From: a virus
IMG/VR virus record: IMGVR_UViG_3300030104_005963
Direction: 5' to 3' (one strand)
DNA length: 64,000 nt
The notes beneath the pieces were generated by a model. That model was not told the DNA's origin. It made no database searches and worked only from the letters and a program-made list of their open reading frames with translations. The position numbers were made by a program, and so were the translations under genes. Positions within the stretch are counted from its first letter, which is position 1; the number at the start of each line of letters is the position of its first letter. This document shows, piece by piece, positions 26,391-61,061 of the stretch.

Positions 26391-27581
26391 GTGACCATCA
26401 CTCTCCGTCCGCATCAGCAACGTGGTATTGATCGTATGAGTGAGTATAACAAAGGTCAACTTATCTTTCCTACTGGAGCAGGCAAAACTCTCACGGCTAT
26501 CATGGATGCCAAGAGAGTATTTGAGACTGCAACATCTCACAAAACCATTGTGATTGTTGCTCCTCGTATTCTGCTTGCAGAGCAACTTTGCAGTGAGTTT
26601 CTGGAAGTTATTCAACGCAATGATGTGCATGTGATGCACGTTCATAGTGGTGAAACTTCTTTCTTTGGCACCACTAAGGTTGAGAAGATTCGGATGCACG
26701 ATTCTATTTGCAAGACTGCCGGTGAGCATCAACTTATCTTCACTACTTACAACTCTTTGGGTCGTATCGTAGATGCAGATGTTGAGGTCGATACAATCTA
26801 CTTTGATGAGGCACATAACAGTGTCAAACGCAACTTTTTCCCTGCCACCGAGCACTACAGTCAGGAAGCTAATCGTTGCTATTTCTTCACTGCCACTCGT
26901 AAGACTTCGGTCACTATTATGAAACCTGGCATGAATGATCATGCTGTTTATGGTGATGTGATCTGTCGTGTTTCTGCACCTGAACTGGTGGAGGGTGGAT
27001 ATATTCTTCCTCCTAAAGTAAAGGTGATTGATATGGAAAAGGTTGACCGTCATTCTATCACTCCTAATCTTGAGAGTGGTAATATTCTCACCACGATTGA
27101 TGACATCAACATCAAAAAGATTTTGGTCTGTGCAAAAACCACAAAACAACTGACTAACATTTTCCTGACTGATTTTGCCTATCAGTTGGAGAAACGTGGT
27201 TATTCTTATTTGTATATTACTGCCAAAACTGGTGCTGTTATCGATGGTAAGAAAGTATCCCGTGAGAAGTTCTTTGAGACTCTGAACGCTTGGGGTAAAG
27301 ATTCTGACAAAAAGTTTGTGGTTCTTCATCGTTCGATCCTATCCGAAGGTATCAACGTCAGTCAACTGGAAGCTGTTATTTTCATGCGTAACATGGATGT
27401 AATTGAAATGACTCAAACTGTGGGTCGTGTGCTTCGTAAAGGGGGTTCAGATAAGACTTATGGGTTCTGTGTCGTTCCCGTATATTCCAAGGTTGGTGTG
27501 AGCACTCAGAGGGGATTGCAGACGGTAATTGATACCGTTTTTGAGAAGGGTGAGATGCTTGATTCTGTCGTTCGTCGTTAA
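26391..27581 (+). CDS. SF2 (DEAH, Res/Type ISP-like) helicase A
   Basis: LRPHQ, PTGAGKT, FDEAH, FTAT, LSEGINV, QTVGRVLR; GTG start. Confidence 0.9.
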   Translation: MTITLRPHQQRGIDRMSEYNKGQLIFPTGAGKTLTAIMDAKRVFETATSHKTIVIVAPRILLAEQLCSEFLEVIQRNDVHVMHVHSGETSFFGTTKVEKIRMHDSICKTAGEHQLIFTTYNSLGRIVDADVEVDTIYFDEAHNSVKRNFFPATEHYSQEANRCYFFTATRKTSVTIMKPGMNDHAVYGDVICRVSAPELVEGGYILPPKVKVIDMEKVDRHSITPNLESGNILTTIDDINIKKILVCAKTTKQLTNIFLTDFAYQLEKRGYSYLYITAKTGAVIDGKKVSREKFFETLNAWGKDSDKKFVVLHRSILSEGINVSQLEAVIFMRNMDVIEMTQTVGRVLRKGGSDKTYGFCVVPVYSKVGVSTQRGLQTVIDTVFEKGEMLDSVVRR

Positions 27582-29694: not shown

Positions 29695-29745
29695 AGAAAA
29701 ACTTGTATTCATTTCATCATTCATTTGGTTTCTTCATTGGGGCAC

Positions 29746-30222
29746 ATGTCTAGCATCTACACTTCTGGATACGGTTATTCTAAGAAACTCTGTGAGGATA
29801 TTACCTCTTGGTTTATGAATAAGTTCTATCCACGTCATAAGATTGATGTAGAAATTGTTCATCGTGGATTGAAACGTGATCAGGTTGTAGGTTATTGTGA
29901 CGTGATCGGTCGATCATACCGGCCACGTCACTTCCTAATTGAACTTCAGTCTCATATGTCTGAGGAATTGTATACAAAAACTCTTTTTCATGAACTGACG
30001 CATCTGGGACAGTGGGTAGATGGTTCTCTGCGGTTCCGGCATGGAAAAATGAGATATTGTCAAGAACCGGTCGAAAACTACGATTATGAGGACCAACCAC
30101 ATGAAATTGAAGCACGCAATGAAGAGATAAGACTATATGAGATGTACTTAAATGCCAAACAAGGTAGTCCAGTCGAACAAGTGGCACAGCACGGGTTTCA
30201 AAACCGTCTCTGTGCTGTATAA
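29746..30222 (+). CDS. Zincin-like (SprT-type) metallopeptidase
   Basis: TLFHELTH (HExxH) and downstream PHEIEA third-ligand motif. Confidence 0.7.
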   Translation: MSSIYTSGYGYSKKLCEDITSWFMNKFYPRHKIDVEIVHRGLKRDQVVGYCDVIGRSYRPRHFLIELQSHMSEELYTKTLFHELTHLGQWVDGSLRFRHGKMRYCQEPVENYDYEDQPHEIEARNEEIRLYEMYLNAKQGSPVEQVAQHGFQNRLCAV

Positions 30223-30223
30223 T
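30166..30223 (+). promoter_or_regulatory. Early promoter copy 5
   Basis: AGTCCAGT-N6-AGTGGCAC; TATAAT 30218. Confidence 0.85.
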
Positions 30224-30245: not shown

Positions 30246-31649
30246 ATGGCATTTCAACTCCGTAGTTATCAGCAGACCATGCTCGATGCTATGCTGAGTA
30301 ATTCTAAGGGTTATTTGACCTGTGGTACAGGTGCTGGCAAGACTTTTACATTCATCAGTGATTGCCGTCGATTCTTGACACCTGGCAATGTGATTGTTGT
30401 TGTTGCTCCTCAGCATTTGCTGTCTAAACAACTCTTCAATGAGTTTGATTGTCATCTCTCAGATGTAGATTTTGTCTATCGTCAAGTTTCCTCTGATCCT
30501 GAGACTTGGAAGCGTAATCGTAAGAACCTCAAGTTTCGTGTAAAGGTACAACCACAGTCACCAACTACGTTTGTCGATGAGATTGAACAGACCTATTCTG
30601 TTGCACAGAAAGCACAGCAACCGCTGATTCTTTTCTCCACATACAAGAGTCTTCAGCGTGTTGTTTCTGCTAACATCCCTGTGACTGTTGTCTACTTCGA
30701 TGAGGCACATAATGCAGCAAATGTTGATAATTTCCCTCCTGTTGAGTCTATCGTCGAAGTAGCAGATCATTCTTATTTCTTTACTGCTACTCCTTGTTTT
30801 AGTGATTCACCAACTGGCAGAGGTTTCGGTAACACTGCCGTGTATGGTGAGCATATTGCTAATATCAAGTTTGGTGATCTTGTAGAGTATGGATCTATCG
30901 TTGAACCTGTGCTGCATCTTGCTCACAGCAACGCTGAGAAGAGGAATCTTGATGAGATTTCTGCTGACGTTGACACTCTGATGGAGATAGTTAACCACTA
31001 CGAAACAAAGTTTTGCGATACCGGAGCACATAAGATTCTGGTTTCATGTCGCGGCACTGCTAACATTCAGGGCATGCGCCTCGCTATGATTAAGTGGGCA
31101 AATAACAAGGGTTACGATCTTCTGTCTGTTGATAGTGTGAATGGTGGATATATGAATGAGATGCAGATCTCTACTCCTAATGCTAAAGGTAAGTTTCTTG
31201 GTAAACTTAATGAACTGGGCGAGGACTTGACTCAGAAGATGATTGTTCTCCACTACGATATGCTCGGTGAGGGTATCGATGTTAAGGCATTCACAGGTAC
31301 AATTTTCATCCGTAATATCATGTCTAGTATCAAAGCAGTGCAGGCAATGGGTCGTGTGATTCGTTCCTCTCCTGGCAAAAAGTATGGCATTGTAACAGTC
31401 GTTCAACATGGCGATGATAGTGACGATGCATGGCACTGTATGGCAGGAATCGTCAATCAATTGCTCACTCAAGGTGTGCCAGTTAGTGGTATCTTGACTG
31501 ACGTGACTGGTCGCGGTAAGGAAGAAGAAATTGTTGAAGATTTGAATGAAAATCTTCAACAACGTATCTTCGATTATAATATTGAATGGCAGCATTCTTT
31601 TATGATTAAGGAGCTCATGTCTACTGGAAATCCCCTGGACATTTTCTGA
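30246..31649 (+). CDS. SF2 (DEAH, Type ISP/Res-like) helicase B
   Basis: QLRSYQ, TCGTGAGKT, FDEAH, FTATP, LGEGIDV, QAMGRVIR; ATG 30246 with GAGG RBS. Confidence 0.9.
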   Translation: MAFQLRSYQQTMLDAMLSNSKGYLTCGTGAGKTFTFISDCRRFLTPGNVIVVVAPQHLLSKQLFNEFDCHLSDVDFVYRQVSSDPETWKRNRKNLKFRVKVQPQSPTTFVDEIEQTYSVAQKAQQPLILFSTYKSLQRVVSANIPVTVVYFDEAHNAANVDNFPPVESIVEVADHSYFFTATPCFSDSPTGRGFGNTAVYGEHIANIKFGDLVEYGSIVEPVLHLAHSNAEKRNLDEISADVDTLMEIVNHYETKFCDTGAHKILVSCRGTANIQGMRLAMIKWANNKGYDLLSVDSVNGGYMNEMQISTPNAKGKFLGKLNELGEDLTQKMIVLHYDMLGEGIDVKAFTGTIFIRNIMSSIKAVQAMGRVIRSSPGKKYGIVTVVQHGDDSDDAWHCMAGIVNQLLTQGVPVSGILTDVTGRGKEEEIVEDLNENLQQRIFDYNIEWQHSFMIKELMSTGNPLDIF

Positions 31650-31654
31650 CCACT

Positions 31655-31712
31655 GTGCCAATTAACAAGTGTCACACCATCTCCTTTTAGGGGTGGTATA
31701 CTATGCTATAAT
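31655..31712 (+). promoter_or_regulatory. Early promoter copy 6 (5-bp spacer variant)
   Basis: GTGCCAAT-N5-AGTGTCAC; TATAAT 31707. Confidence 0.75.
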
Positions 31713-31735
31713 TACAAAGTAATCAAGGAAAGCAA

Positions 31736-33028
31736 ATGACTGCAGCCCCAGTTGCCACCTATTTCCAAAAACGCGAGGCATTGCGTGAGTATTTCAATCA
31801 AGGTATGAGACCTGTTGATGGCAGGAAACCTATTCCCGAAGATATTGCACAGCAGATGGTGAGGGAACTTATCGATTTTGGTGTTTCGAGGGATGCAAAG
31901 ATTGGTGTCTATGATACTTTTTTGACACTGGTTCTCACACTTCAAGAGAACGGTTTCACTAACATTGTTGTATTGGAGAATAAGCATCATGATTTGACAT
32001 CTTTACAACAAGAGTATTATGATATTATTGAGAAAGCATGTGAGAAGATTGGTGTTACATACTATGTGCCCCCCATGAACAACTACAACAGGTGTGATAT
32101 GAAATTTAATGCAATTCTTGCCAATCCTCCTTATCAATCTTCTAATGGTGGTGGGTCACAACGTGGTTCTACTACTAATCCTCTCTGGTGGCAGATTACT
32201 AAAACAAGTCTCAACCTTCTTAAAAAAGATGGTATTCTAAGTTTCATCACTCCTACCAACATTGTAAACGGTGGTGATTGTTTCACCAAGATTTTCTTGG
32301 GTGGTGATCGTAAGTTTGATTTAAACAAAGTTGACTTCACTGCTGCTGATTCTTTCAAGGTTGGTATTCCTATCTGTCGTTGGGTTGCTAACAACAAACT
32401 CACTCCAGGTAACAATGTAATTGTTACCGATGGTCGCATTCTTGACACGTCTAACACTCTTAAAATCAGTTCAGATGTGATTGTTGATGGCATTATGAAC
32501 ACCATGTTTTCTTATGGTGATACACTCAACTTCAATCAATCCAACTCTGATGATCCGCGTCAAGTAAATAAATTTAATTTCAACACTGAAAAGCGATATG
32601 ACTTTCAAAATGTAGAAAAGCATTTGAAAAAGAATGCTCAACCAGAGGACTGGGCAAAGTTGGTTCTTACTCAGGATGAAACATTCAAGTATCCTGTCAA
32701 CGTAAATGGTAAGATTAAGTATTCTCGCGTAAAGTGGAAGAATACTGGAACCTGGAGAGTTTTCTATCCTCAGTTGCAGAATCCTACTCAGATTACTGTT
32801 GATGATGTTGCTGAAGCAGCACCCTCCACTTTTACCATGGTGGTTGATTCTGAGCAAGAAGGTAACAAGGTTAAGGCAATTCTTGATGACCCTTGCTATC
32901 AGTGGGTGATTGAACAGACCCGAGTTAGTGGTAGAGTAACTGCTGTAATCTCTAAACTTCCTAATGCTCCCATTGAAGAAGTTCTGACCTCTGATCAACT
33001 CTCATATATTCAATCTCAACTCTCCTGA
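31736..33028 (+). CDS. Amino-methyltransferase catalytic/TRD half (NPPY), lacking an intact motif I
   Basis: KFNAILANPPYQ, LKKDGILSFITP, long TRD-like C-terminus; no GxG loop (KIGVYDTFL). Confidence 0.75.
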   Translation: MTAAPVATYFQKREALREYFNQGMRPVDGRKPIPEDIAQQMVRELIDFGVSRDAKIGVYDTFLTLVLTLQENGFTNIVVLENKHHDLTSLQQEYYDIIEKACEKIGVTYYVPPMNNYNRCDMKFNAILANPPYQSSNGGGSQRGSTTNPLWWQITKTSLNLLKKDGILSFITPTNIVNGGDCFTKIFLGGDRKFDLNKVDFTAADSFKVGIPICRWVANNKLTPGNNVIVTDGRILDTSNTLKISSDVIVDGIMNTMFSYGDTLNFNQSNSDDPRQVNKFNFNTEKRYDFQNVEKHLKKNAQPEDWAKLVLTQDETFKYPVNVNGKIKYSRVKWKNTGTWRVFYPQLQNPTQITVDDVAEAAPSTFTMVVDSEQEGNKVKAILDDPCYQWVIEQTRVSGRVTAVISKLPNAPIEEVLTSDQLSYIQSQLS

Positions 33029-33030
33029 TC

Positions 33031-33594
33031 ATGAAACTGCAACACACATTTGGTTTTGATTGCGAAGAGATTGACTCTCTAATCTCTGACAATAAGTTAG
33101 ATTCATTCCTGAAAAAGTTGGTTGCCCTTGGTAAGAAACAAGATCCAGACTTCTATGACCCATTGAAGTTCATGGGAGATGGATTTGAATGGTTTGGTGA
33201 ATACTTCTTCAAATTTTTCAATGGCGACCATACACTCACATATACTGCAAACTATGAACCAAACTTCGATTATGATCGCGGTATTGATGGACGTGGACTC
33301 TCTACACTTGACGGACTGCCTAATGTCATTCAATTCAAATTTAAGGCAGATATTACAAAATATCTGACAAATGAGGATAATATTAGTAATGTTGCAGCAG
33401 ATGCAACTATGAACGAAGGTCTGCAATATAATGGAAAGAATGTTATAATAGTGACATCATGTAAGGGCGTACATCCTAAACATGCTATGGCAAATGCCCA
33501 TTGCATCGATAGAGAAAAAATGGCAAGACGTGTCGATAACAATGTCATTTTTTGGGACAATCTACGCAGCATCGTTAAGGAGCAATATGCCTAA
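33031..33594 (+). CDS. Mrr-like PD-(D/E)xK endonuclease
   Basis: GDGFEWFGE helix, DRGIDG (PD motif), IQFK (QxK). Confidence 0.65.
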   Translation: MKLQHTFGFDCEEIDSLISDNKLDSFLKKLVALGKKQDPDFYDPLKFMGDGFEWFGEYFFKFFNGDHTLTYTANYEPNFDYDRGIDGRGLSTLDGLPNVIQFKFKADITKYLTNEDNISNVAADATMNEGLQYNGKNVIIVTSCKGVHPKHAMANAHCIDREKMARRVDNNVIFWDNLRSIVKEQYA

Positions 33595-34060
33595 AAATAC
33601 ACACAATTCAACAGTAGGATCAGATATTGAAAGATCAGATGAAAGAATCGATCTGACTGGTGAGGTATTCACTCCTATGGAATTGTGTGCTGAGATGGTG
33701 TCTGAACTGCCTCAATCAATGCTGCAAGATGCAAAGAGCACTTTTTTAGATCCCGCAGCGGGGTCAGGGAACTTCCTATTGGCACTCCAGACAGAATTAT
33801 TGAAATATCATGAGTTATCATATATCAATGACAATATGCTCTATGCTGTAGAACTTATGGAGGATAATCATGCAGAACTATGTGAAAGACTGGGAGTATC
33901 GGTCGATCATCCACATTTTGTGTGTGCGGATGCCCTGGAATATGATTATGAGTTCGGTGAACCAGCGGCATTGGAGAATGAATTGGGTAAGATTGATGCA
34001 CCTAAAATATACAATCGACCAACTATAGACAAAAAAAGTCAGGCAGCACCACTGTTCTGA
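33587..34060 (+). CDS. Amino-methyltransferase SAM-binding half (motifs X, I, II, III), no NPPY
   Basis: TGEVFTP, FLDPAAGSGNF, LYAVE, CADAL; ATG 33587 overlaps the nuclease stop by 8 nt. Confidence 0.85.
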   Translation: MPKNTHNSTVGSDIERSDERIDLTGEVFTPMELCAEMVSELPQSMLQDAKSTFLDPAAGSGNFLLALQTELLKYHELSYINDNMLYAVELMEDNHAELCERLGVSVDHPHFVCADALEYDYEFGEPAALENELGKIDAPKIYNRPTIDKKSQAAPLF

Positions 34061-34115
34061 CCAGTTCATGAACTGGCACAGCAGGGGTTCCAAAACCGTC
34101 TGAGGGCTATATAAT
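34058..34115 (+). promoter_or_regulatory. Early promoter copy 7
   Basis: TGACCAGT-TCATGA-ACTGGCAC (contains 16-bp perfect palindrome CCAGTTCATGAACTGG); TATAAT 34110. Confidence 0.85.
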
Positions 34116-34481: not shown

Positions 34482-35396
34482 ATGCTGACTCACATTGAAC
34501 ACATTGAAGACTCCATTCTGACCGGTGATCTTCGTCCACTTGACATTTTTGATGAATGGCATCACCTTTCCGTCAAAATGGACGGTGCTCCTGCTATTGT
34601 CTGGGGCACACATCCTGAGACTGATAAGTTTTTTGTCGGCACCAAGAGTGTATTCAACAAGAAAAAGATCAAAATCAATTATACTCATGATGACATCAAC
34701 AACAATCATGAGGGTAATGTATCTCTGATTCTTCATGCCTGTCTGGCAAATCTGCCTAAGACTGATGGTATTATTCAGGGTGATTTTATTGGGTTTGGTG
34801 GTGATGACACCTACAAACCGAATACAGTAACCTATGTGTTCGATGATATTGTTCAAGAGACAATCATTGTCGCACCACATACCTGGCACGAACCAGATCA
34901 GTGGTACAATGGTGATGGTAATTGTCTGCGTGAGTGTATGCCACTGCCACTGAATCATGGTGAAATGGTGAGCACAGATGAATGTCTGTTTGTGCAACCC
35001 AAGACCTGGAGAATCATGGATGAGGACTTTAGTTCCAGTATTGCCTTTGCACGTCAGATGGCACAAATGGTGGAGTTTGTGGATGAGAAACAGGTGGTGA
35101 AACTGAAACAGGTTCTTAACTCTTTCATCCGTGAGGGTATTGAACTGAATGAGGAAGTGATTGCCTATAGTGCGGACTGTGATGTCAATCTGATTCGGTT
35201 GTGGAAACTGGTTCAATCAATGAAGCATGAGTATCTGTTTGCCTGCCGTAATAACGGACCAAAGGCATATCTGAACAAACGTAGATGCCACGGTGAGGGT
35301 TATGTCGTCTTCCATGATTATGGCACGTTCAAGTTTGTGAAACGTGAGAACTTTAGTCGATTGAACTTCACAATGCAGAAGGCATGGGACAGTTGA
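34482..35396 (+). CDS. ATP-dependent ligase-like nucleotidyltransferase (KxDG)
   Basis: SVKMDGAPAIVWG (motif I), IIQGD (III-like), GEGYV (IV), KFVKR (V-like). Confidence 0.6.
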   Translation: MLTHIEHIEDSILTGDLRPLDIFDEWHHLSVKMDGAPAIVWGTHPETDKFFVGTKSVFNKKKIKINYTHDDINNNHEGNVSLILHACLANLPKTDGIIQGDFIGFGGDDTYKPNTVTYVFDDIVQETIIVAPHTWHEPDQWYNGDGNCLRECMPLPLNHGEMVSTDECLFVQPKTWRIMDEDFSSSIAFARQMAQMVEFVDEKQVVKLKQVLNSFIREGIELNEEVIAYSADCDVNLIRLWKLVQSMKHEYLFACRNNGPKAYLNKRRCHGEGYVVFHDYGTFKFVKRENFSRLNFTMQKAWDS

Positions 35397-43390: not shown

Positions 43391-44080
43391 ATGGCATGTT
43401 TGATAACTAATCTTCCATCACAGGAAGTATGGGTTCGTAAAGAATACCTGACAGATCATCAAAGTGGGCATGGGGAGTTTGTAAAGGGCGTCTGGGTATC
43501 GGCAAAGTCGATTCCTGGACGTGCTTTTTATTTTGAGACATATTTGCCCGAATATGCGGCAATGTACGATAAACTCCCTATCAGTGCCTTTCTGAGTGAA
43601 CCTAAAACACCAGATCCGGACATGACCCTACACAATCTACAGTTCTGGAACTGTATGGACTATGGTGTAGTGGCAGTACAGAAGCAATTTATTGGTTCTA
43701 TGCACTATGAGGTCTATACAAGAGACTACGGACCTCAGACGGGCACCTATGTGTGTACTCTAGACAACTATCATCAGGATCCTGACACAGTTGATTACTC
43801 CACAAGTGAAAATCCTTCCGAACATAAGTCACATAACCTCATTGAACTTGATAATGGGCAGTTTTGTCTCTATCCAAACAACAGAACTCGCATTTATGAC
43901 AATAGTTTAACTCCGGAAGAACCAAAAATACCGGATTTTAAGGTTTCGACAGTGTACTATCAGGTCGAAAACGGTCATGACCGTGATGGACTTGGAAATG
44001 ATGAGAATTATTTCTGGAAAACGGCAAAAGAACGTCAAAATAGTGAAGAAAATGTTGAAAATGACGGTATAAATAAATAA
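43391..44080 (+). CDS. Hypothetical protein
   Basis: 229-aa ORF preceding gp25. Confidence 0.8.
   Translation: MACLITNLPSQEVWVRKEYLTDHQSGHGEFVKGVWVSAKSIPGRAFYFETYLPEYAAMYDKLPISAFLSEPKTPDPDMTLHNLQFWNCMDYGVVAVQKQFIGSMHYEVYTRDYGPQTGTYVCTLDNYHQDPDTVDYSTSENPSEHKSHNLIELDNGQFCLYPNNRTRIYDNSLTPEEPKIPDFKVSTVYYQVENGHDRDGLGNDENYFWKTAKERQNSEENVENDGINK
44068..44075 (+). promoter_or_regulatory. T4-type late promoter TATAAATA
   Basis: Perfect match 17 bp upstream of gp25. Confidence 0.85.
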
Positions 44081-44092
44081 AAACTCTGTCTG

Positions 44093-44494
44093 ATGGCGGT
44101 AACACGGATATCCAGAGCATTCAAGGACATTAGTTTGTCCTTTGAACCTCATCCAATCACTAATGATCTACCAATTTTAAAGAATGAGTCGGCAATTCGT
44201 CGTTCTGTGAGAAATATTGTTCAGACAATACCGACTGAAAAGTTTTTTAATCCGGTTTTTGGGTCTGATGTCTATGGTAGTCTATTTGGATTTATAGATT
44301 TTGGTACAGCCTCAATCATTAAAGATCAAATTCTTACCTGTATTAAAAATTTTGAACCTAGAGTCAATAATGTAAAAGTAAAAGTTGAACCATTACCTGA
44401 TGATAACTCATTTGATGTAACAATATTTTTCGATATCATTGGACAAGAGTTCCCAACACAAGAATATTCATTCATATTAGAGGCAACGAGATAA
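44093..44494 (+). CDS. gp25: Baseplate wedge subunit gp25
   Basis: FKDISLSF, AIRRSVRNIV.T.P.EK.F.P.FGS, IKNFEPRV. Confidence 0.92.
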   Translation: MAVTRISRAFKDISLSFEPHPITNDLPILKNESAIRRSVRNIVQTIPTEKFFNPVFGSDVYGSLFGFIDFGTASIIKDQILTCIKNFEPRVNNVKVKVEPLPDDNSFDVTIFFDIIGQEFPTQEYSFILEATR

Positions 44495-44498
44495 TAAA

Positions 44499-46463
44499 AT
44501 GCCTTTCACTAAGTTTACAAACCTAGATTTCGATCAAATTAAGACATCCATTAAGGATTATCTTCGTGCAAACTCTGATTTTACAGATTTTGACTTTGAA
44601 GGATCTAATTTTTCGGCACTAATTGATACATTAGCATATAACACCTATATTACATCATTTAATTCAAATATGATTGTTAATGAATCCTTTTTGGATTCTG
44701 CGACAATCAGACAAAATGTAGTTTCTCTTGCCGGAAATATTGGTTATGTTCCAAGATCAAAAACTGCATCAAAAACAACAGTATCTCTTAGAGTTATTTT
44801 AGGATCTAACGATGACGTTAATGATGTTTCCACGATATCATTAAATGCCGGAATTTTTTCAACCGGAAGTTCTAATGATACGACATTTGTATTTTCTACA
44901 ATAGAAGATATACAAGGAAAAATTGAAATTGAAGATAATAATAAAGTTGCATATTTTGATAATATTGAAATATATCAAGGAACATTACTTAAAAAAAGTT
45001 TTATATATGATGGATCTTTAGATCAAAAATTTACTTTAAATAATTCAAATGTAGATGCGACAACAATATCAGTTTATATTAGTGATTTTGAATCTCAAAA
45101 AGGATTTAAATATAGTCCTGTAGAAAATATTTCAAATATTACTAAAGATTCAAGAATATATTTTATAAGAGAAATTCAGGATGAAAAATATGAGTTAAGA
45201 TTTGGTGATGGTATTTTTGGAAAAAAACTTGGTGATAGTGCCGGTGCCGATGGTAAGTATATTAATGTTGATTATTTGATTACTGATGGTAGAGAAGGAA
45301 ATGGAGTACAAAGATTTACCTATGCAGGATCACTTAAAAATCAGAATGGTAGTATTGTTGTACCTGCCAGTGTTGATCTTATAAAAGGTGAAAAAGTTAG
45401 TGATGGAGTTTACAATCCTATTGCCAAATCACAAAATGGAAATAATATTGAACCCATAGACTCTATTCGTTATTTTGCTCCTCTTGCATATTCAGCACAA
45501 AATCGTGCCGTCACTCCAAGAGATTATGAGGCAATTATCAAAAGAATATATCCAGATGCAGAATCAATTTCAATTGTTGGAGGAGAAGAGTTAGATCCTC
45601 CAGAATTTGGAAATGTAATTGTTAGTATAAAACCAAGAGGTGGAACATTTGTAAGTGATTTTAACAAAAAACAAATATTATCAAAACTTAGACAATATTC
45701 TGTTTCTGGTATTAATCAAAGAATTATTGATCTTAAAATACTTTATGTCGAACTTGATACATCCGTTTACTTTAATGAATCTTTTGTTTCAACCATATCA
45801 TCGTTACAGTCTGAAGTTTTAAATCAACTCACTGAATATTCCGAATCTACTAATTTTAATAAATTTGGAGGTAGATTTAAATATAGTAAATTACAAAATG
45901 TTATTGATGAAGTTGATCGAAATGCCATTACATCAAATATAACTAAAATTAAAATTAGAAGAGATTTAAAGGCAGCTATTAATCAATTAGCACAATATGA
46001 ATTATGTTTTGGAAATGAGTTTCACGTTAAAAGTGAAGGTCTCAATATAAAATCTACAGGATTTAAAGTTTTTGGCGAATCCTCAACTGTATACTTTACA
46101 GATATTCCAAATGAAGATGAAAAAACAGGAATACTTCAAATTGTTAAGTTGACAGGAAATAATCAAACAAAAATTGTAAATTCTTCTGCTGGTAAAATTG
46201 ATTATATTAAAGGTGAAATTATAGTTGATACTGTAAATATTATATCTACAGAAAAAACAAATAATATTATTGAAATTGAAGCAGTTCCAGAATCTAATGA
46301 TGTTGTAGGTTTGAAAGATTTATTCTTATCTCTTGATGTTTCTAAAAGTAGAATAAATATGTTGAGAGATTTAATTTCTTCTGGTGATGAGATATCTGGA
46401 GTGAAATTTATCGAAGATGCATTTACCTCAAGCTATTCAAACGGAAGTATAATAAGAAACTAA
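44499..46463 (+). CDS. gp6: Baseplate wedge subunit gp6
   Basis: LDFDQIK...DFDFEGSNFSALIDTLAY...ESFLDSA, QNRAVTPRDY. Confidence 0.93.
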   Translation: MPFTKFTNLDFDQIKTSIKDYLRANSDFTDFDFEGSNFSALIDTLAYNTYITSFNSNMIVNESFLDSATIRQNVVSLAGNIGYVPRSKTASKTTVSLRVILGSNDDVNDVSTISLNAGIFSTGSSNDTTFVFSTIEDIQGKIEIEDNNKVAYFDNIEIYQGTLLKKSFIYDGSLDQKFTLNNSNVDATTISVYISDFESQKGFKYSPVENISNITKDSRIYFIREIQDEKYELRFGDGIFGKKLGDSAGADGKYINVDYLITDGREGNGVQRFTYAGSLKNQNGSIVVPASVDLIKGEKVSDGVYNPIAKSQNGNNIEPIDSIRYFAPLAYSAQNRAVTPRDYEAIIKRIYPDAESISIVGGEELDPPEFGNVIVSIKPRGGTFVSDFNKKQILSKLRQYSVSGINQRIIDLKILYVELDTSVYFNESFVSTISSLQSEVLNQLTEYSESTNFNKFGGRFKYSKLQNVIDEVDRNAITSNITKIKIRRDLKAAINQLAQYELCFGNEFHVKSEGLNIKSTGFKVFGESSTVYFTDIPNEDEKTGILQIVKLTGNNQTKIVNSSAGKIDYIKGEIIVDTVNIISTEKTNNIIEIEAVPESNDVVGLKDLFLSLDVSKSRINMLRDLISSGDEISGVKFIEDAFTSSYSNGSIIRN

Positions 46464-46464
46464 T

Positions 46465-49400
46465 ATGATACAAACAGGATTTGAAACCCGCATACAGGTA
46501 CAAGATATTGTATCAAATCAACTTCCAAATTTCATTGTAGATGAAAGTCCGAAGACAATAGATTTTCTGAAACAATATTATATTTCTCAGGAATATCAAG
46601 GTGGTCCTACAGATTTATCGACAAATTTAGATCAATATTTAAATTTAGATAATCTTACCCCAGAAATTATAGTAGATAGTACAATCACTACTAGTTCTAC
46701 AACTAATAGTGATTCAACAATTAATGTATCCAGTACAAAAGGGTTTCCTAAAGAGTATGGGTTACTAAAAATTAATAATGAAATTATTTCTTATACAGGG
46801 ATAACAACAAACTCCTTTACAGGTTGTATTCGTGGATTTAGTGGAGTTACTTCTTATGGATCAAATTTTGATAAAGAAGAACTAATTTTTTCAGAATCAT
46901 CTTCAGAATCTCATAATTTAAATTCTTCTGTTAGAAATTTAAGTAGTTTATTTTTAAAAGAATTTTATAAAAAATTTAAAACAACATTTGCTCCAGGACT
47001 AGAAAATAATAATTTCGTATCGTCATTGAATGTTGGTACTTTTCTTAAGGAAATAAAATCTTTTTACCAAAGTAAAGGTACAAATGAATCTTTTAGAATA
47101 CTATTTGAAATTTTATATGGAGAAAATCCAACTGTTATAAATTTAGAAGAAAAATTAATTAAACCATCTTTTGCAGAATATAGAAGAAGAGAAGTTGCTG
47201 TAGCAAAAGTTATTTCCGGAGAAGGATCTTTCCTTAAAGGTCAAGGTTTATTTAAAGATAATTCAAATATTGTCGCATCAATTTCAGAAATATCTCCTTT
47301 TAATGTTAATGATGAAATTTTTTATAAATTATCTCTTTTTGTTGGATATGATGAAGACTCTGATATTCAGGGAAGATTTTTACCAACACCAAATTCTAAA
47401 TGTACAGAAGATGTTTTGATTAACGGATCTGTTGTAAACGTTGATTCTACAATTGGATTTAATAAAAGTGGAAAATTTAGGGCAGGATCTAACATAGTTT
47501 CATATACAGATAAAACTGTTAATCAATTTTTAAACTGTACTGGTATCAGTAGTCCAATATCTCAGGGAGATTTGATTTATGATAATGAAATTTATTATGG
47601 ATATGAAAATGGAGATATTAATAAAAAAGTTGAATTAGTATTTTTTACCACTCTTAGTAATTTTATACAGAAAGGTGTTGTAAATGTTAATGAAAGTGAT
47701 CCAATTGGAGTAAAAAATCTTGGTGATAAAGTAATTAATCCTACACAAAATAAATCTTCAAAACAAATATTAGCAAATTCTTGGATTTATAATACCAATT
47801 CCTCATATTTCATTGATAATTATGATTCCGGTTTTCTTGAACTTTTTTCTCCTATTGATAAATCTAGTTTAAAATTAGGTGACTCTGTTGAAATTGTTGA
47901 AAGAAATACTGGAGTAGTAATATTTCCTAATGAAAATAATAAACCTTTTGTATCAATTGACGGAATTGCTGAGGGTAATGAACAAAAAATACAAGGAAGA
48001 AAAAATGTAATAATAAATGATATTGACTACACCAAATTAGGTATTGGGACAGATTATAATTTAAGAAAAAAACTCAATAAAGCTAAGATTGGGGATAATA
48101 GTAACGTAACGTTTAAATATGGAAATGAGAGTTTAATATCAGACGTTCAAAATGTTTATTTTGATGATGAATTTGCTTATGTTGCATCAAATTCTTTACC
48201 TTCTACAAAAACAAGAGGAGGTATTAAAAATGACAGTAGAGATGAGTTTCCTCTTTCAGAAGATATTGATGTCAAAATTAAAAAATTAGTAATTGATCTT
48301 GATACTGGTACTGGAGGTATTTTAACATCATTTAATGAGTTAACTAAAGATTTTAATGGTATAAAAGTATTAGATGATGGTGGAAATACTCCATTCAAAA
48401 CCGGTGAAAAAATATTTTACAAACCAGAAACAAATTCTATAGTTGGATTAGAGACAGGAAATTATTTTGTTGAAGTAATTGAAGGTAATGGTGATAGTGA
48501 TGTAATTAAATTATATGGATCAAATTATCTTATAGGAACTAATAACAACATAAAGTTGTCTAATATAGGGGGAACACATACGTTTGTATTAGAGTCTCAA
48601 AAATCTGGAACAATTGGACCACAAAAGTTATTGAAAAAATTCTCAATCAATCAGAAATTGGTAGATGGGAAAAATGAAAAAACTATTCCTGGAGGAGTAG
48701 GTTTATTAATAAATGGTGTTGAAATAACAAATTATAAATCTACAGATAAAATATATTATGGACCACTAAAAAAAATTAACGTCTTAAATGGGGGGGAAAA
48801 TTTTGATGTCATAAATCCACCAAAAATTGTTGTAGAGTCTGGATTAGGAAATACTGCTCTAGCTCAACCAGTTATTACTGGATCTATAAAAGATGTTTTA
48901 ATAGATTTTGACACATATAATTTTAATATTTCTAATATCATATCTATAGGTGTAACAGGTGGAAATGGAACTGGTTGCGCTCTTGAACCGTCCGTCTCAA
49001 ATACTTCTTTCAGAGAAATTAAATTTGATGGTAGACCGCAAACTTCAGGTGGTGGAATTAATACAATAACAAATCAAATACTTTTTGATACACCTCATGG
49101 ATTTACCAGTGGACAAGAAGTTATCTATGACTCTAATTTTGGTAGTTTAGTTGGAATTGGTCTTTCGAGTAACAGTAATAGTACAACTCTTGTAAATAAA
49201 TCAACCTATGTTGTTGAAGTACCAAACGTTCGTACTGTAAAACTTTACAGAAACAGAGACGACTATGATGCAAGAATCAATGCAATTAGTTTTAATGGAA
49301 CACAAGGGTCTGGAAATCAAAAATTAAAAGTAGGACCATTAGGAGTATTAAAGGATATTATTGTAATTGATGGTGGAAAGGGGTATACTAATAAAAAATT

Positions 49401-52400
49401 AATTGTTAAATCATCGGATGTATCTACAAACTATAATTGGATAGAATTTAAAAATCATGGTTTTAATAATGGAGAATTAATTGATTATTCTATTGCATCC
49501 GGTAATGGAGTATCATCACCAACAGTCATATCAGGATTATCTACCGATAAAAAATATCAAATTCTTAAACTTGATGATAATAAATTTAGAGTCTGTGATG
49601 CTGGAATTGGAGGAACTATTGTTTCCAATTTTGAAAGAAAAAATTATGTTAAATTTGAATCTTCTGGAACAGGATATCAACAATTCAGTTATCCTAAAAT
49701 TTCTGTAGATTTTAGAGTTATTACCGCAGGTATTGGAGAAACAACAATAACAATAACTCCTGTAGTAAAAGGATCTATAACTTCTGTAGATTTGTATGAG
49801 AATGGCACTGGATATGGATCTTCTATTATAAATTATGAAAATAGTCCAAAAGTTTTAATTAAAAATGGAAAAAATGCTAGAGTTGTACCCATAATATCAA
49901 ATGGTAGAATAAATTCTATAAATGTTGAATATGGTGGAGAAGAATATTATTCAACACCAGATGTTATTGTTACGGATACATCTAAGTCCGGTTCTGGTGC
50001 TGTTTTAAGAGCTATAATAAAAAATAATAAATTAGATTCTGTAAAAGTAATAAAATCAGGTATTGGTTATTCAGCATCAGATACATCTGTATCCGTAATT
50101 TCTTCGGGATTTAATCATTTCTTAGAATCTAAAGTAAGAGATTTAACAATTGTAACTAATGAAATTTTCAATTCAAATAAACTTTTAGTTGATAATGATA
50201 ATGATGAATTAAAATATTCTGTTTGTGGATATGATGTAAATTTATTCTCAGATAATGGTAGTTCTATATCTGGTATTATTGGATGGGCATATGATGGAAA
50301 TCCAATTTATGGACCATTTGGATCTACCGATCCAAATAGTTTTATATTCAAATCTAAATTAAAATCCGGATATGTACTCGATACATCAAATGTAACAGAT
50401 AGACCGATTGGATTTTCTAATGGATTTTTTGTGGAAGATTATCAATATAATGGAATAGGTGCAGATTTAGATGAGCATAATGGTAGATATGAAAAAAATA
50501 AAGATTTTCCAAATGGAGTTTATGCATATCACGCAGTAGTTGGACAAAATAATGTCCCAATATTCCCATTTTTTGTAGGGGATACTTATAGATCCAAAAA
50601 AATAAAAGAAAATTTTGAATTTGATTTTAATCAATCATACGATTTTATTAATTCTACTTTACAAAGAAATACATTTCCATATAATGTTGGTGAAAAATAT
50701 GCTGACAACTATTTCATAAAAATAAAAAAAGATCAAAAAATAGTTGCAGATAAAATAACATCTGGTAATGTAGAAAATACATCTATAGTTAACGAAGGAA
50801 CAGATTTTAAAGTAAATGATATTATAAAATTTGATAGTAGTGAGACTGGAGGAAGTGGTCTGAATATAAAAGTCTCTTCTGTTACAGGTAAAAAAATAGA
50901 GAGTGTAGACACGGTAAAAGAAGAATATAATAATTCTATTTTAACTTGGGGAGGAAATACTGTACAAGTTACCCTTGAAACTGAACACGAATTTGAAACA
51001 GGTGATTACGTATCATTTTCTGGAATATCGACAGATTCCTTAAAAAGTTTAGAAAAATATCATAGAATAGTAGTTGAAAGTGATTCAACATCTAGACTTA
51101 TATCGTCTATTTCTGCTGGTGCAGCCACAACTGAAATATATCCATCATTTATCCCAAATTATGTTTCTGCGGGATCTACAATTGGTATTGGAAACGAATC
51201 ATTAACAGTATTGAATGTATTTGAAGATTCAAATATTTTAAGAGTAATAAGAGGTAATTCGGGTATTTCTCATACAGAATCTTCACTAGTAAATTATAAA
51301 ACAAAGAGTTTTACTTTTGATAATCAAGTTCCATATTTTAATTCTAATAATAATCGTAAGATTTATTTTAATGCTGCAGAATCTGTAGGAATTGGAACTA
51401 TATTTGGAATAGGATTTTCCACATCATTTATTTTTGGAGATTCCACTATTTCTAGAGAAATTCCTGTGAGAGGAATATATTTAAAAAATCATCCATTTAA
51501 AACAAATCAATTAATAAAATTAACAAATCCCACAGATACAAAACGCATTACATATTCTATAGAACCTAATGGTACGATAATACAACTTGAAAATGGAAAT
51601 TATTATGCTGTAAACAAATCTAAAAATGTAATAGGAATTAAAACCGGAATAGGTGATAATTTTAATGAAATATATTTTAGAGGGTTTGCAGGATCTGGTA
51701 GTAACACCGAAAACACTGATACATATCTTTTCGAAGAAACATTTGATCAGATAACTGCCACTGCAAAATCAATAAAAACAACTGTTTCTGTATCTACTTT
51801 CCATGATCTTGGAAGAAATGATTTAGTTAAATTGAATATTGTTCCTAATCTTTCTGTTGGAATTGGAACATCATCATCATCTGTGGTTGTTAAAATAGAT
51901 AATTCTACAAATCAAATTCTTGTAAATCCTGTAGGATTTAGTTCCTTGGGTATTAATACTATAACAAATCAAATATCTTTAACTAATCATCCATTTAAAA
52001 CAGGTGATAAGGTAAAATATACTTATTCTGATAAGGTAGCATCTGGGTTGGATACTGGAGGATATTATATTTTTAAAGTTGATGAGGACACAATTAAACT
52101 TGGAGAAACTTTTTCTGATGTAGTATCAAATAATCCGAGAATTGTTAGTATCGCAGGAACTGGAGGAGAGTCTCATACATTATCGTTAATTAATCCCGAA
52201 ATAAAAGTTACAAAAAATAATAATCTTACTTTTGACTTATCAGATGGTTCTTTAGGTGGATATGAATTTAAAATTTACCATGATGGTGATTTTAAAAATG
52301 AATTTGTATCTACAGGAAATACATCGACATTTAATATTGTAGGATTCGGAACAGTTGGATTAGCAGGAGCAGGTTTAACTGTTTATTCTGATAACAATTC

Positions 52401-55400
52401 CCCAATTTCATTATTCTATAATGTGGAAAAATCTGGATATATTAGCACTTCCGATAAAGATGTTAAAAATTATTCCAATATCAATTTTAACTCTAGTAAT
52501 TATAATAGAGAATTTAAAATTCTTAATGGAGTTGGATCAACTACATTTAGTGTATATCTAGAAAATGATCCTGAAAGATTTTCATATTCACCATCAGACT
52601 GTGATGTGCTCGAATATTCAACTACATCAGAAAATGCAAAGGGAGGTATAAATTCTTTAAATATTGTATCTTCAGGAAGTAATTATAAAAAACTTCCTAA
52701 AGTTGTTGGATCTTCTTCAACTATATCTGAAAACGCCATAATTACCGTTTCTTCTCAAAGTATTGGAAATATTAGAGATATTGATATTATCACTGATGAA
52801 TTTAAATATTATACTGATACTACTTTAAGACCCACAACTTTACTCCCCAGTATTATTGAATTGAAAAATTCAAATACAATAGATTCTGTTAAAGTAGAAA
52901 ATCCAGGATTAAATTATTTTTCTGCACCTAGTTTAGTAATAGTTGATAAAGTAACCGGTAAAAAACTTGATACTGGATTTTTAGAACCAATATTTAATAC
53001 AAGTATAACAGGTGTAAAAATTGCATCAACACCATTTGGACTTCCTGATACTGGAGTTTTGATTAGAACAATATTAAATGATAATGGATTTACCATTGAT
53101 AAAATTGACTCTGCTGAGGGAACCGAATTTACATGTACTTTAATTACTCCAACTGCTGGATTTAGTACATCTCCATTCGTAATTGGTGATGAAGTATATG
53201 TTGAAGGTATACAAAAGATTAATTCTGATGGAACTGGACACAATTCTGAAGATTATGGATATCAATTTTTAAAAGTAGTATCTATTCCAGATCCTTTTGG
53301 AAATCCAAATCCAAATCCTTTTAGAGTTAAATTTGATGTGGTCGGATTAACAACAAATACTGGAATAGCAGTTACTGAATCAAACGGATTGGGAAGATTA
53401 ATACCTAGTAGTCAATATCCAACTTTTAAAACATCTTTAATTTCATCACCATTTTTACTTGGAGAAAAACTTAATGTTAATGAATTAGAAAAAGATTTGG
53501 AAGTTGTCAGAAAAAATGATGGTGAACTTGTTGTGTTTGGAAGTGATTCGGAAACCCTAAAAATAGGGGATCAAATTTTAGGAAGAAATTCTTTAACAAT
53601 AGGAAAAATTAACAAAATATCTAATAATGAAGGAACTTTCAATATAGATTTTTCATATAAAACTGATATTGGATGGGAAAACTCAACCGGAAAATTAAAC
53701 AATGATCATCAAGTTATTCCAGATAATGATTATTATCAAAATTTATCATATTCTGTAAAAAGTAATCAAACTTGGAAAGAAATAAAATCTCCTGTTGGTA
53801 GACTTGTTCACACTTCAGGGTTAAAAAATTTCTCTGATACTCAGATTCCATCAGAAACAAAAACTAGTATCGGAAGCACAAATCAAACACTTGTAATTAG
53901 TGATACATTTGATGAGTCTAGGGTTGATATCCTTAGAGGAATAGATTTAGTTAGAGATGATGAGTCTGATGGAGAAGTTTCAAATTTCCTACAATTTAAT
54001 AAAACTAGATTTGTTAATTTTATTGATTGTAGAACAAATAATGTTCTTTCTATTGATAATATAAATCAACAATTCTCCAATTTGGAATCTAATCCTGATA
54101 GATTTTTAAATCTTGATATTCTTGAGAATATAGAAAGATATGATAATTATTTGGTTAGAATTGAAAGTTTTAATCATTCTGTAAAACAAATACAACTTTC
54201 GGAATTTGTAGTATTATCTAATGGAAGAAGAAATCACACAATATTCAGCAAATCGGAATTAACTAATTCTGGAGAAAATTTTACAACTTTTGCTGAAGAT
54301 AGATTTGGAAATTATGTTATAGAAACAAATTCTGAAGAAAAAATTACTTATCTTAGATTTTCTCCAGATAATCCAAATGATATTGATTATGATCTTAAAT
54401 TTATTAAGACAAGTATAAATCCTTTGATGCGTGGTGTTGGAATTCATTCAATGGGATTTATTGATTTGATAGCATCAAATAAACCTATCTTGGCAGGTGC
54501 GACAGGGGTATTATTATCTAAAAATATAGAAGATATTGAATCTGCACATATTAGTACTAGAGTTATTAATGCGAGAACAAAAGAAATAAATTTTGTAGAA
54601 ACATATATTACACATGATGGAACAGACACTTATATTTCAGAATACTATGTTGATGCTGGAGGTGAAAGTCTTGATAATAGAATAGGAATTTCATCCGTTT
54701 CTATTGAAAGTGGTAATTTAATATTTTCATATGTAAATGATACTACCAATAATTTAAGAGTTAATTCTAAAATAATTGGATTTGGGACAGCATCTCGTGG
54801 AAATGGAGAATATCGATATTTGGTTGATGGTCAAAATTCTGGAGAAGAAAAAACTGCATTATATCAATCATCTTTTACATCTAGAGTTGGAATAACTACA
54901 TTATTCTCTGGAAATCCACTTACATTTGATGCTATTAAATGTACTGTTGAAGTAAGTGCAGGTTCTTCAAAGGCTTTACATCAAATAACTGCAATACATG
55001 ATGGAAATAATGCTTATTTACAACAATCCCAATTCCTAGCAAATAATTATGATTCTATAATAGGACTAGGAACTTTTAGTGCTACACATGCTTCTAATGA
55101 GTTTATTGTTAAATTCCATCCAGAAGATACTACTGGAATTACAAGTATTAAAACTTTTAATCAAGTATTTTATAAAGGTATAGACGATGATAATATTCCC
55201 AATGAATTAAAATATAAAAATATTACAGAAAGTGCAGAATTTAAATTTTATAATGCAATTAATGGAGATAGAATTAATAGAAAACAGTTTGATTTAAAAC
55301 ATAAAAATGTTGATATATTCAAAAAATCATTCAATCCAGCATCTACCATTGTTGCAGCAGTTAATACTGGAATTGGATATAGTGCATTTAGTGTTAAAGA

Positions 55401-58400
55401 TCATTTCTTTAGAACTGGTGAAGAATTAATTTACACTCCTAAATCTACATTTGTTGGAGTTGGTTCAACTCCAATGCAATATACTATTGATGGATCTACA
55501 GTTGGTGTATTAACATCTAGAGTTTTTGCAATAAGACATACTGACGATGAATTTGGAATTGCAACAACTAAGGCACATGCAGATAGTGGAATAGGAATTA
55601 CTGTTACTTCTTTTGGAGAAGGAAATGCACATACACTTGAAATGGTTAAGTCTAATGAAAAAGCATTAATGGCTATTGATGGTATTGTTCAAACTCCAAT
55701 ATCTAATACACGTATTACACATACCATAGCTAATAATGCTGCACCTGGAATAACAACTGATCAAACTATTTTTGCTCTCAGTGGAATTTCATCTGTAAGT
55801 ATTATAAACATCCTTAAAGTTGAAGATGAATATATGAGGGTTGATAATGTTGGAGTCGGAACATTAGCAATAGGACCCATAACTCCCGGAGAAGGAAATT
55901 TCAAACTAGTAAGTGTTGAAAGAGGATCGGTTGGTAGTTCTGCTACTGCTCATGCAAATGGAACACTTGTAGAACTTTATAAAGGAAACTACAATATAGT
56001 TGATAGTAAGGTTAATTTTATTGAAGCACCTAGAGGTAATCCTCAAGGTCAGGATAGAAATGGATTACCGTTCTCAAGATCTATATTTAATGGTAGAGTT
56101 TATTTTAGAAACAATTATGCATCTAATTTCATATATGATGATATTTCTCCACAATTCACAGGAATAAAATCAGACTTTACTTTGACTATTAATGGTGAAG
56201 AAGTTGAGGGTATTGGACCGGAAGGTGGCCAAGGTGTTCTATTCATTAATGGAATATTCCAAACACCGATTACTGATAATAATCCCAATCAAAATTATCA
56301 AATTTTAGAATCATCTAACAGAGCAGTAACATTATCTTCTAATTACACATTAACTGCTGGAATGGGAATAACACAGTTTAATAACCCAAATTTATCTGCT
56401 ACTGTTGTAAGTGGAACTAGTTCTGGAATAGCTACTTTCTCTATAACAAATGGATCTTTAAATGTTGGAATAGGAAGCACATTATTTGCAAACGGTACTG
56501 ATACTAATGTGTATCCGACAAATGTTTCATTTGTTACTGGTATATCAACAGTCAAATTTACCGGAACATATCCTGATGATATTGAAAAAGATTTTATTAG
56601 TGAATCTGATGTAAACTCAAATCAAATACCTAGAGGTGGATTACCTATATCCGTAGGATCTACTGCAGGACTTGGATATGCTCCACTAATAGGTGCTAAA
56701 CTTCGTCCTGTAGTAGTAGGAGGTTCCATAGTAGATGTTGTTGGTGTAGCCACTACAGGGGCATCTCTTGGCATTCAAACCGCACTGTATAATAATGTGA
56801 CCGGTATCCTATCTGTAACTACAACAACGGACCACGGACTTGATTTTGGTGATCAAAGTAAAGATCAGATAAGGTTGGTTGGTCTATCGTTCACATGCAA
56901 TTCTGGTTCTGGAACTGTCATTTACCCTACTGGTGGAGAAAAAGGATATTCATTAATAAGTACACCGAGTTCTACGGTATTTGAGGTTAATGCAGGAATT
57001 AGTACATTAATTCATTACTATAATGGAGGGGGAACTGTTATTCCATTCTTCCCACAGTTAAGTTTTGGATCTGGATATAATGGAATTGTTTCCGTATCTG
57101 TTGCAGTTACAGAAACTGGACATACTGGAAATGCTGCGGTTATAACTGGAACACCTGTAACATTTAATACACACCAATTTATTAGTGCTACTGCAGGAAT
57201 TCAAAAATCAGGAAGTCCTGCAATTCAACCAGAATCTGGAACTACATATAATCCTTCAACTGGAATCTTATCAATTACTGCAGCATCTCATGGATTATCT
57301 ACTAATGATCTTGTAACAATTCAAGATGGATCTTTGGTATTTTCTTGTGCTCAAGATAGTTTCCAAACTTTACATCCATATCCAAGAAGCACTGATTATG
57401 TATCAGGTATTTCTACTGCGATTACCAAAATAAATGACGATGTATTTACAGTATTTGTTGGAACATCTCCCGCACATGGTGGAGGAGCACTTACATTTAA
57501 TATTTCCAACGGTGGAACTGGTTATACCAATCCAACAATATTTGTTTCAGAACCATCTTATGAAAATCTTTCTATAGTTGGTATTTCTAGAAGGGCAGAT
57601 GGACCGACTACTGATACTGGAGTAGGATTAAAAATTGATGCGAAAACAACTCCAAGTGCCGATTATACGGGAATAGGATCAGAATTATTTGAAATATCAG
57701 AATTTGAAATTAGCACTCCTGGATATGGATTTTTCCCCGGAGATAAATTTAAGGCAGTTGGATTAGTCACTTCTAGATTTATAGAATCACTAATTAAAGA
57801 ATTTGAAATGGAGGTAACAGAAACATTTACCGACCAATTTGCATTATGGCAGTTTGGTGAATTTGATTATATCGATTCTATTGCACCATTACAAAATGGT
57901 AGAAGAACTAGATTCCCATTAAGATATGAAAATGAATTAATTAGTGTCGAGGCAAATGATGCTTTTAATGTTGAATTAAATCCAATTCTTCTTATCTTTA
58001 GAAATAGAGTTATACAAGAACCTGGAAAAACATATGAATTTATTGGAGGAACATCTGTTAACTTTAAAGTTGCACCAAGATCTGAAGATGATATACAAAT
58101 TTTCTTCTATAAAGGAACTGATGGTGAAGACTCTTCCATTGTAGAAGCTCCACCATCACCAATTGAAATTGGTGATGAAGTACAAGTTATGGGAAAACCA
58201 AATCAAGATAATAGATTAATTCATGAATTTACGCAAGCAGATACTATAAGAACAAATTCATATAGAGGACTTGGAATAACAGATGACTTTGAACCAGTTG
58301 AAGTTACAAGACAAAAATATGATTTATTCATTGATGGTAACGTTATTGATAAATCAAGAATTCTTTTAGAACCAAGAATTAATCCAGCAGCAAAAATAAT

Positions 58401-59421: not shown

Positions 59422-59425
59422 TCCT

Positions 59426-59433
59426 TATAAATA
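59426..59433 (+). promoter_or_regulatory. T4-type late promoter TATAAATA
   Basis: Perfect match between gp7 and gp8. Confidence 0.85.
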
Positions 59434-59450
59434 TCTAAAAAACTATCGAT

Positions 59451-61052: not shown

Positions 61053-61061
61053 TAAAAAAAG

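Follow-up and report, generated by a model that had tools for sequence, protein, structure and literature searches.

The stretch of DNA analysed here (the window; 64,000 nucleotides (nt) of the IMG/VR virus record IMGVR_UViG_3300030104_005963) belongs to a T4-like marine cyanophage related to Synechococcus phage Bellamy, and positions 30246-34060 of it are occupied by a cassette of four open reading frames (ORFs) on the + strand, referred to hereafter as hel2, mtC, p187 and samN. An earlier note, made from the letters alone, had read this region as four adjacent genes with the parts of a restriction-modification (RM) enzyme of Type ISP on separate chains; the ORFs and their translations agree with it in gene positions and in every motif that it quoted. 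The four genes are as follows:

30246-31649, + strand: hel2, 467 amino acids (aa), predicted superfamily 2 (SF2) helicase-like ATPase, of the kind that serves as motor in Type ISP enzymes
31736-33028, + strand: mtC, 430 aa, predicted gamma-class (Eco57I/M.TaqI-type) N6-adenine methyltransferase (MTase) catalytic domain with a C-terminal target recognition domain (TRD)
33031-33594, + strand: p187, 187 aa, predicted stand-alone Mrr-family PD-(D/E)xK nuclease domain
33587-34060, + strand: samN, 157 aa, predicted free-standing half-methyltransferase that would bind S-adenosylmethionine (SAM), with motifs X, I, II and III and no motif IV

The last three genes are closely packed: the TGA stop of mtC is separated from the ATG of p187 by 2 nt, and the last 8 nt of p187, stop included, are shared with the start of samN (ATG; ATGCCTAA), which we count in favour of a single machine. 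The cassette region is 76% identical in DNA to that of Bellamy (Kyanoviridae), where the same genes stand in the same order and are annotated only as helicase, DNA methyltransferase, hypothetical and hypothetical. All four genes occur together also in phage ACG-2014f and in ~20 IMG/VR contigs. Given this recurrence and the membership of each gene in a PHROG (E from 5e-37 to 4e-111), the gene set is not a chance assembly, and the four genes, whose synteny the earlier note had proposed to survey, are indeed found together in other genomes.

The identity of p187 was resolved by structure search alone, as sequence searches returned nothing meaningful in Pfam (E <= 0.1), PADLOC, NCBIfam or the PDB (with the single sequence and with the family profile). 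Its AlphaFold2 (AF2) model, with a predicted local distance difference test score (pLDDT) of 94.9, was compared with 48,161 PDB representatives in an all-PDB fold search independent of Foldseek, and the best match was to residues 12-169 of LlaBIII, its nuclease domain (Z 9.1, root-mean-square deviation 3.3 Å over 129 aligned residues); next in rank came the Mrr-like AF1548 (Z 8.5), MspJI and AspBHI. Foldseek itself returned restriction endonucleases almost throughout. The PD-(D/E)xK fold that the earlier note had suggested for this ORF is present in the model, and is of the Mrr type. The translation reads DRGIDG...QFK, with the signature E53, D82-x-G84-I-D86 and Q101-x-K103, and in the 41-member family alignment E53, E57, D82, G84, D86, Q101 and K103 are all invariant. 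The Mrr signature comprises a motif I glutamate, D-x-G-h-D in motif II and Q-x-K in motif III, and the LlaGI counterparts of the p187 residues are E38, D74, D78, Q92 and K94, with D74, D78 and K94 essential for cleavage (PMC2790908). Signature residues and fold of p187 agree with Mrr, although the protein itself has no match to Pfam Mrr_cat or Mrr_cat_2 (PF04471/PF13156) at E <= 0.1; proteins occupying the same operon position score above the cut-offs of these models in loci L039 (30.7 and 24.3 bits) and L058 (27.1 bits). We take the invariant signature and the modelled fold together to indicate that p187 is a nuclease of the Mrr type whose active-site signature is intact. The family spans 87 metagenome clusters, judged to be marine from their TARA source labels and their likeness to cyanophage loci.

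In hel2, motifs I, II, III, V and VI are intact (CGTGAGKT, DEAH, TATP, GEGIDV and QAMGRVIR), Pfam matches are to ResIII (52 bits), DEAD (35 bits) and Helicase_C, and the protein belongs to phrog_16 (E 5e-37). A single-sequence search of the PDB places LlaGI and LlaBIII on top, and a family profile of 19 members (A5) matches LlaGI/LlaBIII over both RecA lobes at E 3.4e-27, with the next solved helicase 18 orders of magnitude behind (E 3.4e-9). Catalytic residues are invariant in the 19 aligned sequences. An SF2 ATPase homologous to the LlaGI/LlaBIII motor is thus encoded by hel2, and the same top PDB matches are obtained for hel1 (26391-27581, + strand), a 396-aa SF2 helicase of ~30% identity to hel2 and its paralogue. 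hel1 is a core gene found in 435 cyanophage records. A Type ISP-type motor would then be native to cyanophages, and seems to belong to the core genes of cyanomyoviruses, where it has no known partner or role. We considered hel1 as a fifth component of the cassette and rejected it, as most of the 435 records carrying it have no samN.

The third part, mtC, combines the Pfam score and the (N/D)PP(Y/F) motif that characterise Eco57I-type gamma-class N6-adenine MTases: it matches Eco57I (PF07669) at 38.9 bits against a cut-off of 25.3, carries NPPY at residues 130-133, and falls into phrog_3689 (E 4e-111). A single-sequence PDB search gave only spurious matches to ribosomal proteins. The AF2 model (pLDDT 87) superimposes on M.TaqI from end to end (Z 18.5, model residues 31-412 on residues 21-407 of the chain), its catalytic domain fits HsdM structures at Z 15-17, and the Foldseek matches, at E 1e-8 to 1e-12, include M.BseCI, CamA, M.TaqI, DrdV and BrxX. 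On this modelled fold, mtC is best described as a gamma-class MTase catalytic domain with a TRD, and the earlier assignment of all these parts to Type ISP domains holds, with p187 corresponding to the LlaBIII nuclease domain and hel2 to LlaGI/LlaBIII. The family is large (>200 metagenome clusters), and the TRD part differs among relatives. When the N-terminal half of mtC is aligned with samN, a 6-residue gap falls exactly over PAAGSG, so that the motif I glycine loop is missing from mtC, as the earlier note had stated.

This loop is found instead in samN, where motifs X (GEVFTP), I (LDPAAGSGNFL), II and III are intact and the chain ends before motif IV. Accordingly, the Pfam N6_Mtase match covers only model positions 25-87 of 311; the protein is a member of phrog_4376 (E 5e-68). 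Neither product has the full motif set, as expected of an MTase split over two genes. Both samN and p187 lack a family model in Pfam, NCBIfam and PADLOC, and their PHROGs are of unknown function; the literature that we searched, which was incomplete, yielded no paper on this cassette or on a split N6-adenine MTase. An exhaustive search found 913 relatives of samN, many of them stand-alone proteins of 110-200 aa. Others show where this sequence belongs in an MTase. In the single chain P0233 it runs straight into FDVIVGNPPFQ, giving the order X-I-III and then NPPF, and in P0231 and P0318 the order is reversed, with NPPY or NPPF at residues 8-11 and the samN sequence at the end. A clean split over two genes occurs in Prochlorococcus phage P-SSM2, where PSSM2_036, which starts with MKFTLAIGNPPY, has the samN homologue PSSM2_037 as the next gene, and equally in L051, L052, L062, L068 (Curtobacterium ammoniigenes) and L078, in each of which an NPPY protein beginning at beta4 adjoins samN. 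Such beta4-start partners could form no SAM site without an N-terminal half supplied in trans. The comparative evidence from sequence therefore points to samN as a detached half of one MTase fold.

The earlier note had gone further and taken samN and mtC for complementary SAM-binding and catalytic halves. The clean splits and single-chain relatives uphold the first of these assignments. The second does not stand as worded, as mtC is not a bare catalytic half: its model is a complete M.TaqI-like Rossmann fold with a degenerate beta1-beta3 N-half of its own (beta-alpha-beta-alpha-beta). Complementary halves is thus the best reading of the family and is only partly right for the window.

The linkage of the genes is conserved. 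samN was paired with an NPPY or NYPY protein in all 38 phage loci examined; an automated check placed an xPPx protein within 800 nt of samN in 36 of the 38, the rest being a truncated contig and the NYPY variant. The order hel2-mtC-p187-samN is seen in ~20 loci, and samN-p187-mtC-hel2 in ACG-2014f. Elsewhere hel2 and p187 are replaced: S-CAM7, L014-L016 and L025-type loci read [T5orf172-like + helicase]-[short mtC]-samN, and in MA01 (1074 aa) and L037 (1138 aa) a nuclease-like domain, a helicase and an MTase are joined in one chain followed by samN, so that the helicase and MTase are naturally fused. Three kinds of nuclease-like/helicase module, then, adjoin or are fused to the MTase pair, as would be expected if all formed a single system. 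We tried to read the N-termini of the 1138-aa protein of L037 and the 705-aa protein of L025 as p187-like domains and rejected this (hhalign probability ~0.1%); both look T5orf172/GIY-YIG-like by eye, and a Pfam T5orf172 match was obtained in L014 only.

Across 21 four-gene loci, mean identity to the window is ~80% for p187 and samN, 64% for hel2 and 50% for mtC, whose TRD part is often unalignable. A TRD that is swapped beside constant p187 and samN is what would be expected of a specificity subunit next to constant subunits. Cellular genomes carry the set as well. That of Fischerella (L058) has four genes in the order helicase-Mrr-Eco57I-samN, with L112 and L039 similar, and in Lactobacillaceae and other Firmicutes (L086, L079, L077, L088, L096 and L126) helicase-Eco57I single chains of ~1350-1490 aa are followed by a samN-like protein of 233-275 aa. 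The Lactobacillaceae chains match a REBASE-derived restriction-enzyme model. In the three that were inspected (L086, L079 and L077) the motif I region (LDINAKTGLYP) is atypical, and chains of this type may also depend on a SAM-binding partner in trans. A further arrangement recurs in Bacteroidales and Clostridia (L087, L098 and L106-L124), in which a samN-like protein of 222-285 aa precedes an apparently complete Eco57I MTase of ~500-545 aa, with a protein of ~960-1000 aa after it; in L087, the one locus scanned, the third protein is a T5orf172-helicase.

We suggest, as a reading that is rather probable, that the products of the four genes are subunits of a single helicase-coupled machine of the RM type, with the domains of a Type ISP enzyme placed on separate chains: mtC and samN as MTase and reader, hel2 as motor and p187 as cutter. 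The TRD of mtC would read the DNA target and mtC would hold the catalytic NPPY pocket, and samN would supply the motifs X and I-III that mtC has lost, the pair forming an active N6-adenine MTase that also tells self from non-self. Methylated sites would mark DNA as self and so protect that of the phage, hel2 would translocate along DNA from unmethylated sites, and p187 would cut it, as in Type ISP enzymes; the substrate could be host DNA or the DNA of co-infecting phages. We thus infer physical assembly of the four products, completion of the SAM site in trans, translocation driven by adenosine triphosphate (ATP), cleavage, and both restriction and self-protection by the cassette. The earlier note's other proposal, that the cassette is a decoy of host RM, found no support.

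A bolder version of this proposal, which we put forward tentatively and at somewhat less than even chances, is that samN is an undescribed and widespread "constant" SAM subunit which completes interchangeable NPPY/TRD "variable" subunits in trans, the MTase being cut between motifs III and IV, and that in cyanophages this pair is connected with an Mrr nuclease on a chain of its own and with a motor of the Type ISP kind, giving a four-subunit restriction machine with which a lytic phage would attack host or rival-phage DNA and mark its own genome. A SAM-binding subunit acting in trans would be the most original element of the system.

Several observations weigh against a four-part assembly. Judged by the database matches, the ISP-like helicase signal is common to the core helicase hel1 and so not confined to the cassette, and with this likeness the motor type of hel2 argues for restriction only when taken together with the other parts. 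In P-SSM2 and S-SKS1 the MTase pair occurs with no hel2 or p187 adjoining it, which indicates that the pair can work without motor and nuclease. In the mtC model, the degenerate beta1-beta3 lies beside beta4, where samN would dock, and D60 and E81 of mtC, the acidic positions of motifs I and II, are nearly invariant, so that mtC could still bind SAM alone. Finally, the MTase of L039 has an intact motif I in cis, yet the samN gene is kept there, and for this reason samN may have a role other than completing a broken site.

The first two of these points favour an alternative in which the cassette is concerned with modification only: mtC and samN would form a two-piece orphan MTase directed against host restriction, and hel2 and p187 would serve in host-genome breakdown, recombination or repair without reading methylation. 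Orphan MTases are common in phages, and the core cyanophage helicase to which hel2 is paralogous lacks an MTase partner. We nevertheless regard this explanation as unlikely, as most loci have a nuclease and helicase module, which comes in three non-homologous versions, beside the MTase pair; fusion of the module to the MTase is seen in MA01, L037 and the Lactobacillaceae chains that match the restriction-enzyme model; and the same set is present in the cellular genomes L058 and L112. In P-SSM2 itself (L044, 1957-7932), PSSM2_036/037 are flanked by a 1147-aa protein with no Pfam match and a 462-aa protein with a weak DpnI_C-like match, and these may be unrecognised partners.

The remaining points bear on samN, which could instead be a regulator, that is, a SAM sensor or buffer tuning the switch between methylation and cleavage, with mtC acting either as a reader of methylation or as an MTase that is self-sufficient and has an atypical motif I. 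Besides the complete modelled fold of mtC with its D60 and E81, and the intact MTase beside samN in L039, this alternative can draw on samN-like domains that stand alone or are joined to unrelated domains without NPPY (P0228, P0334, P0235 and P0238), as well as on about a dozen bacterial samN genes with no obvious NPPY neighbour. It is set against the beta4-start partners of the clean splits, which need the N-half in trans for a SAM site, and against the single-chain relatives, in which the samN sequence sits exactly at the normal position of motifs X-III, and we consider it improbable.

Lastly, loss of the motif I loop from mtC and the spread of the system over four genes could be taken as damage, the cassette being a decaying and non-functional remnant of a captured bacterial RM system. 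We give this very little credence: all ORFs are intact, catalytic residues are invariant in the 41 p187 and 19 hel2 sequences, p187 and mtC recur in the numbers of metagenome clusters given above, identity among the samN proteins of the compared cyanophage cassettes is 59-90%, and the same split recurs in unrelated bacteria.

Among known systems, the four-subunit machine that we favour would come closest to Type ISP enzymes such as LlaGI and LlaBIII, with which the cassette shares the Mrr nuclease signature D-x-G-h-D...Q-x-K (here on the separate p187 protein), the SF2 motor (the closest solved relative of hel2) and the gamma-class N6-adenine MTase with a TRD (PMC4666363). A Type ISP enzyme is, however, one polypeptide, whereas the cassette consists of four ORFs with their own starts and stops; single-chain relatives exist in L086, MA01 and L037 and lie outside the window. 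The gene order is helicase-MTase-nuclease-SAM half, the motif I in cis is deleted, and a separate SAM-binding protein is added, such that fold, NPPY and TRD reside in mtC and the intact motif I on samN only. No counterpart of the Type ISP coupler domain was identified in the cassette, and no test aimed at the coupler was made; some ~80 residues at the C-terminal end of hel2 and the initial ~30 of mtC carry no domain assignment. The carriers differ too, a lytic cyanophage here as opposed to a plasmid or chromosome for Type ISP. In our analysis the cassette would resemble a Type ISP enzyme in the way it works but falls outside the definition of one, having neither a single polypeptide nor an intact SAM site in cis.

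The PADLOC model PDLC03626 (REBASE "Type IIG" with helicase) describes a related design, in which an Eco57I-type MTase with a TRD is joined to or adjoins an SF2 helicase with an N-terminal nuclease-like domain, and its cellular members L086, L064 and L087 each have a samN-like gene beside them. The T5orf172-helicase layout of S-CAM7, MA01 and L037 is comparable to it by Pfam matches and pairwise BLAST and not by model score, L037 giving no match to the PDLC03626 model. The cassette differs from this design in that its nuclease is of the Mrr type and a separate protein, and its helicase, hel2, is of a different family.

Classical Type I RM systems (HsdR/HsdM/HsdS) resemble the cassette in being built of several subunits and in combining a PD-(D/E)xK nuclease with an SF2 motor that depends on ATP and with an adenine MTase of the gamma class. 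In the cassette, however, nuclease and motor are separate, the TRD is on the MTase (M.TaqI-like) and not on an HsdS, and the SAM half is detached. Systems of the CglI/NgoAVII type (R and H subunits) do place a nuclease and a helicase-like ATPase on separate proteins that jointly perform cleavage dependent on nucleoside triphosphates (PMC5737866); they differ in having another nuclease family and a separate, conventional and unsplit MTase. A precedent for one MTase fold made from two genes, whose products must associate, is provided by M.AquI and M.EcoHK31I (PMC3404938). In these cytosine-5 enzymes the cut falls within the variable region or close to it, with motifs IX and X on the small subunit, whereas the cassette would hold an amino-MTase cut between motifs III and IV, with the whole SAM-binding half as the small subunit.

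If the four proteins assemble, the Type ISP architecture would not be bound to a single chain, and the cassette would offer a naturally modular version in which to dissect communication between nuclease, motor and MTase. The samN family would represent an amino-methyltransferase that is split in nature at its SAM-binding half; the C5 enzymes M.AquI and M.EcoHK31I are the only naturally split DNA MTases that we can cite. The occurrence of the family in hundreds of phage and bacterial loci implies that annotation pipelines miss a recurrent RM component. A phage-borne system cutting non-self DNA in abundant marine cyanophages (Bellamy, ACG-2014f, S-CAM7 and MA01; P-SSM2 and S-SKS1 have the MTase pair) could also bear on the degradation of host DNA and on competition between phages.

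The cassette is flanked on both sides by near-identical promoter-like elements, and a further TATAAT box lies within it, in the 86-nt gap before mtC. Read from the sequence, these are:

30183-30223, + strand: promoter-like element GGCACAGCA-GGGTT-CAAAACCGTCT ... TATAAT (TATAAT at 30218-30223), just 5' of hel2
31707-31712, + strand: TATAAT box, a possible internal promoter for mtC-p187-samN
34075-34115, + strand: second promoter-like copy (TATAAT at 34110-34115), immediately 3' of the samN stop

The flanking elements recall regulatory cassettes to which the shuffling of genes in T4-type phages has been attributed. Directly 5' of hel2 (29725-30222, + strand) is a gene for a 165-aa protein with an HExxH motif (phrog_10499), whose SprT-like/DUF6782 matches are weak and below the cut-off. 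It has the same position in L004, L005, L006, L012, L020 and L021, is not found in Bellamy, and is possibly an accessory of the cassette. On the other side, a DUF6267/phrog_455 protein of 304 aa (34482-35396, + strand) often adjoins the cassette and, across many loci, samN. Further downstream, the G+C content falls near 44 kb from ~0.38-0.43 to ~0.27-0.31 and remains at this low level as far as the window extends (44001-64000).

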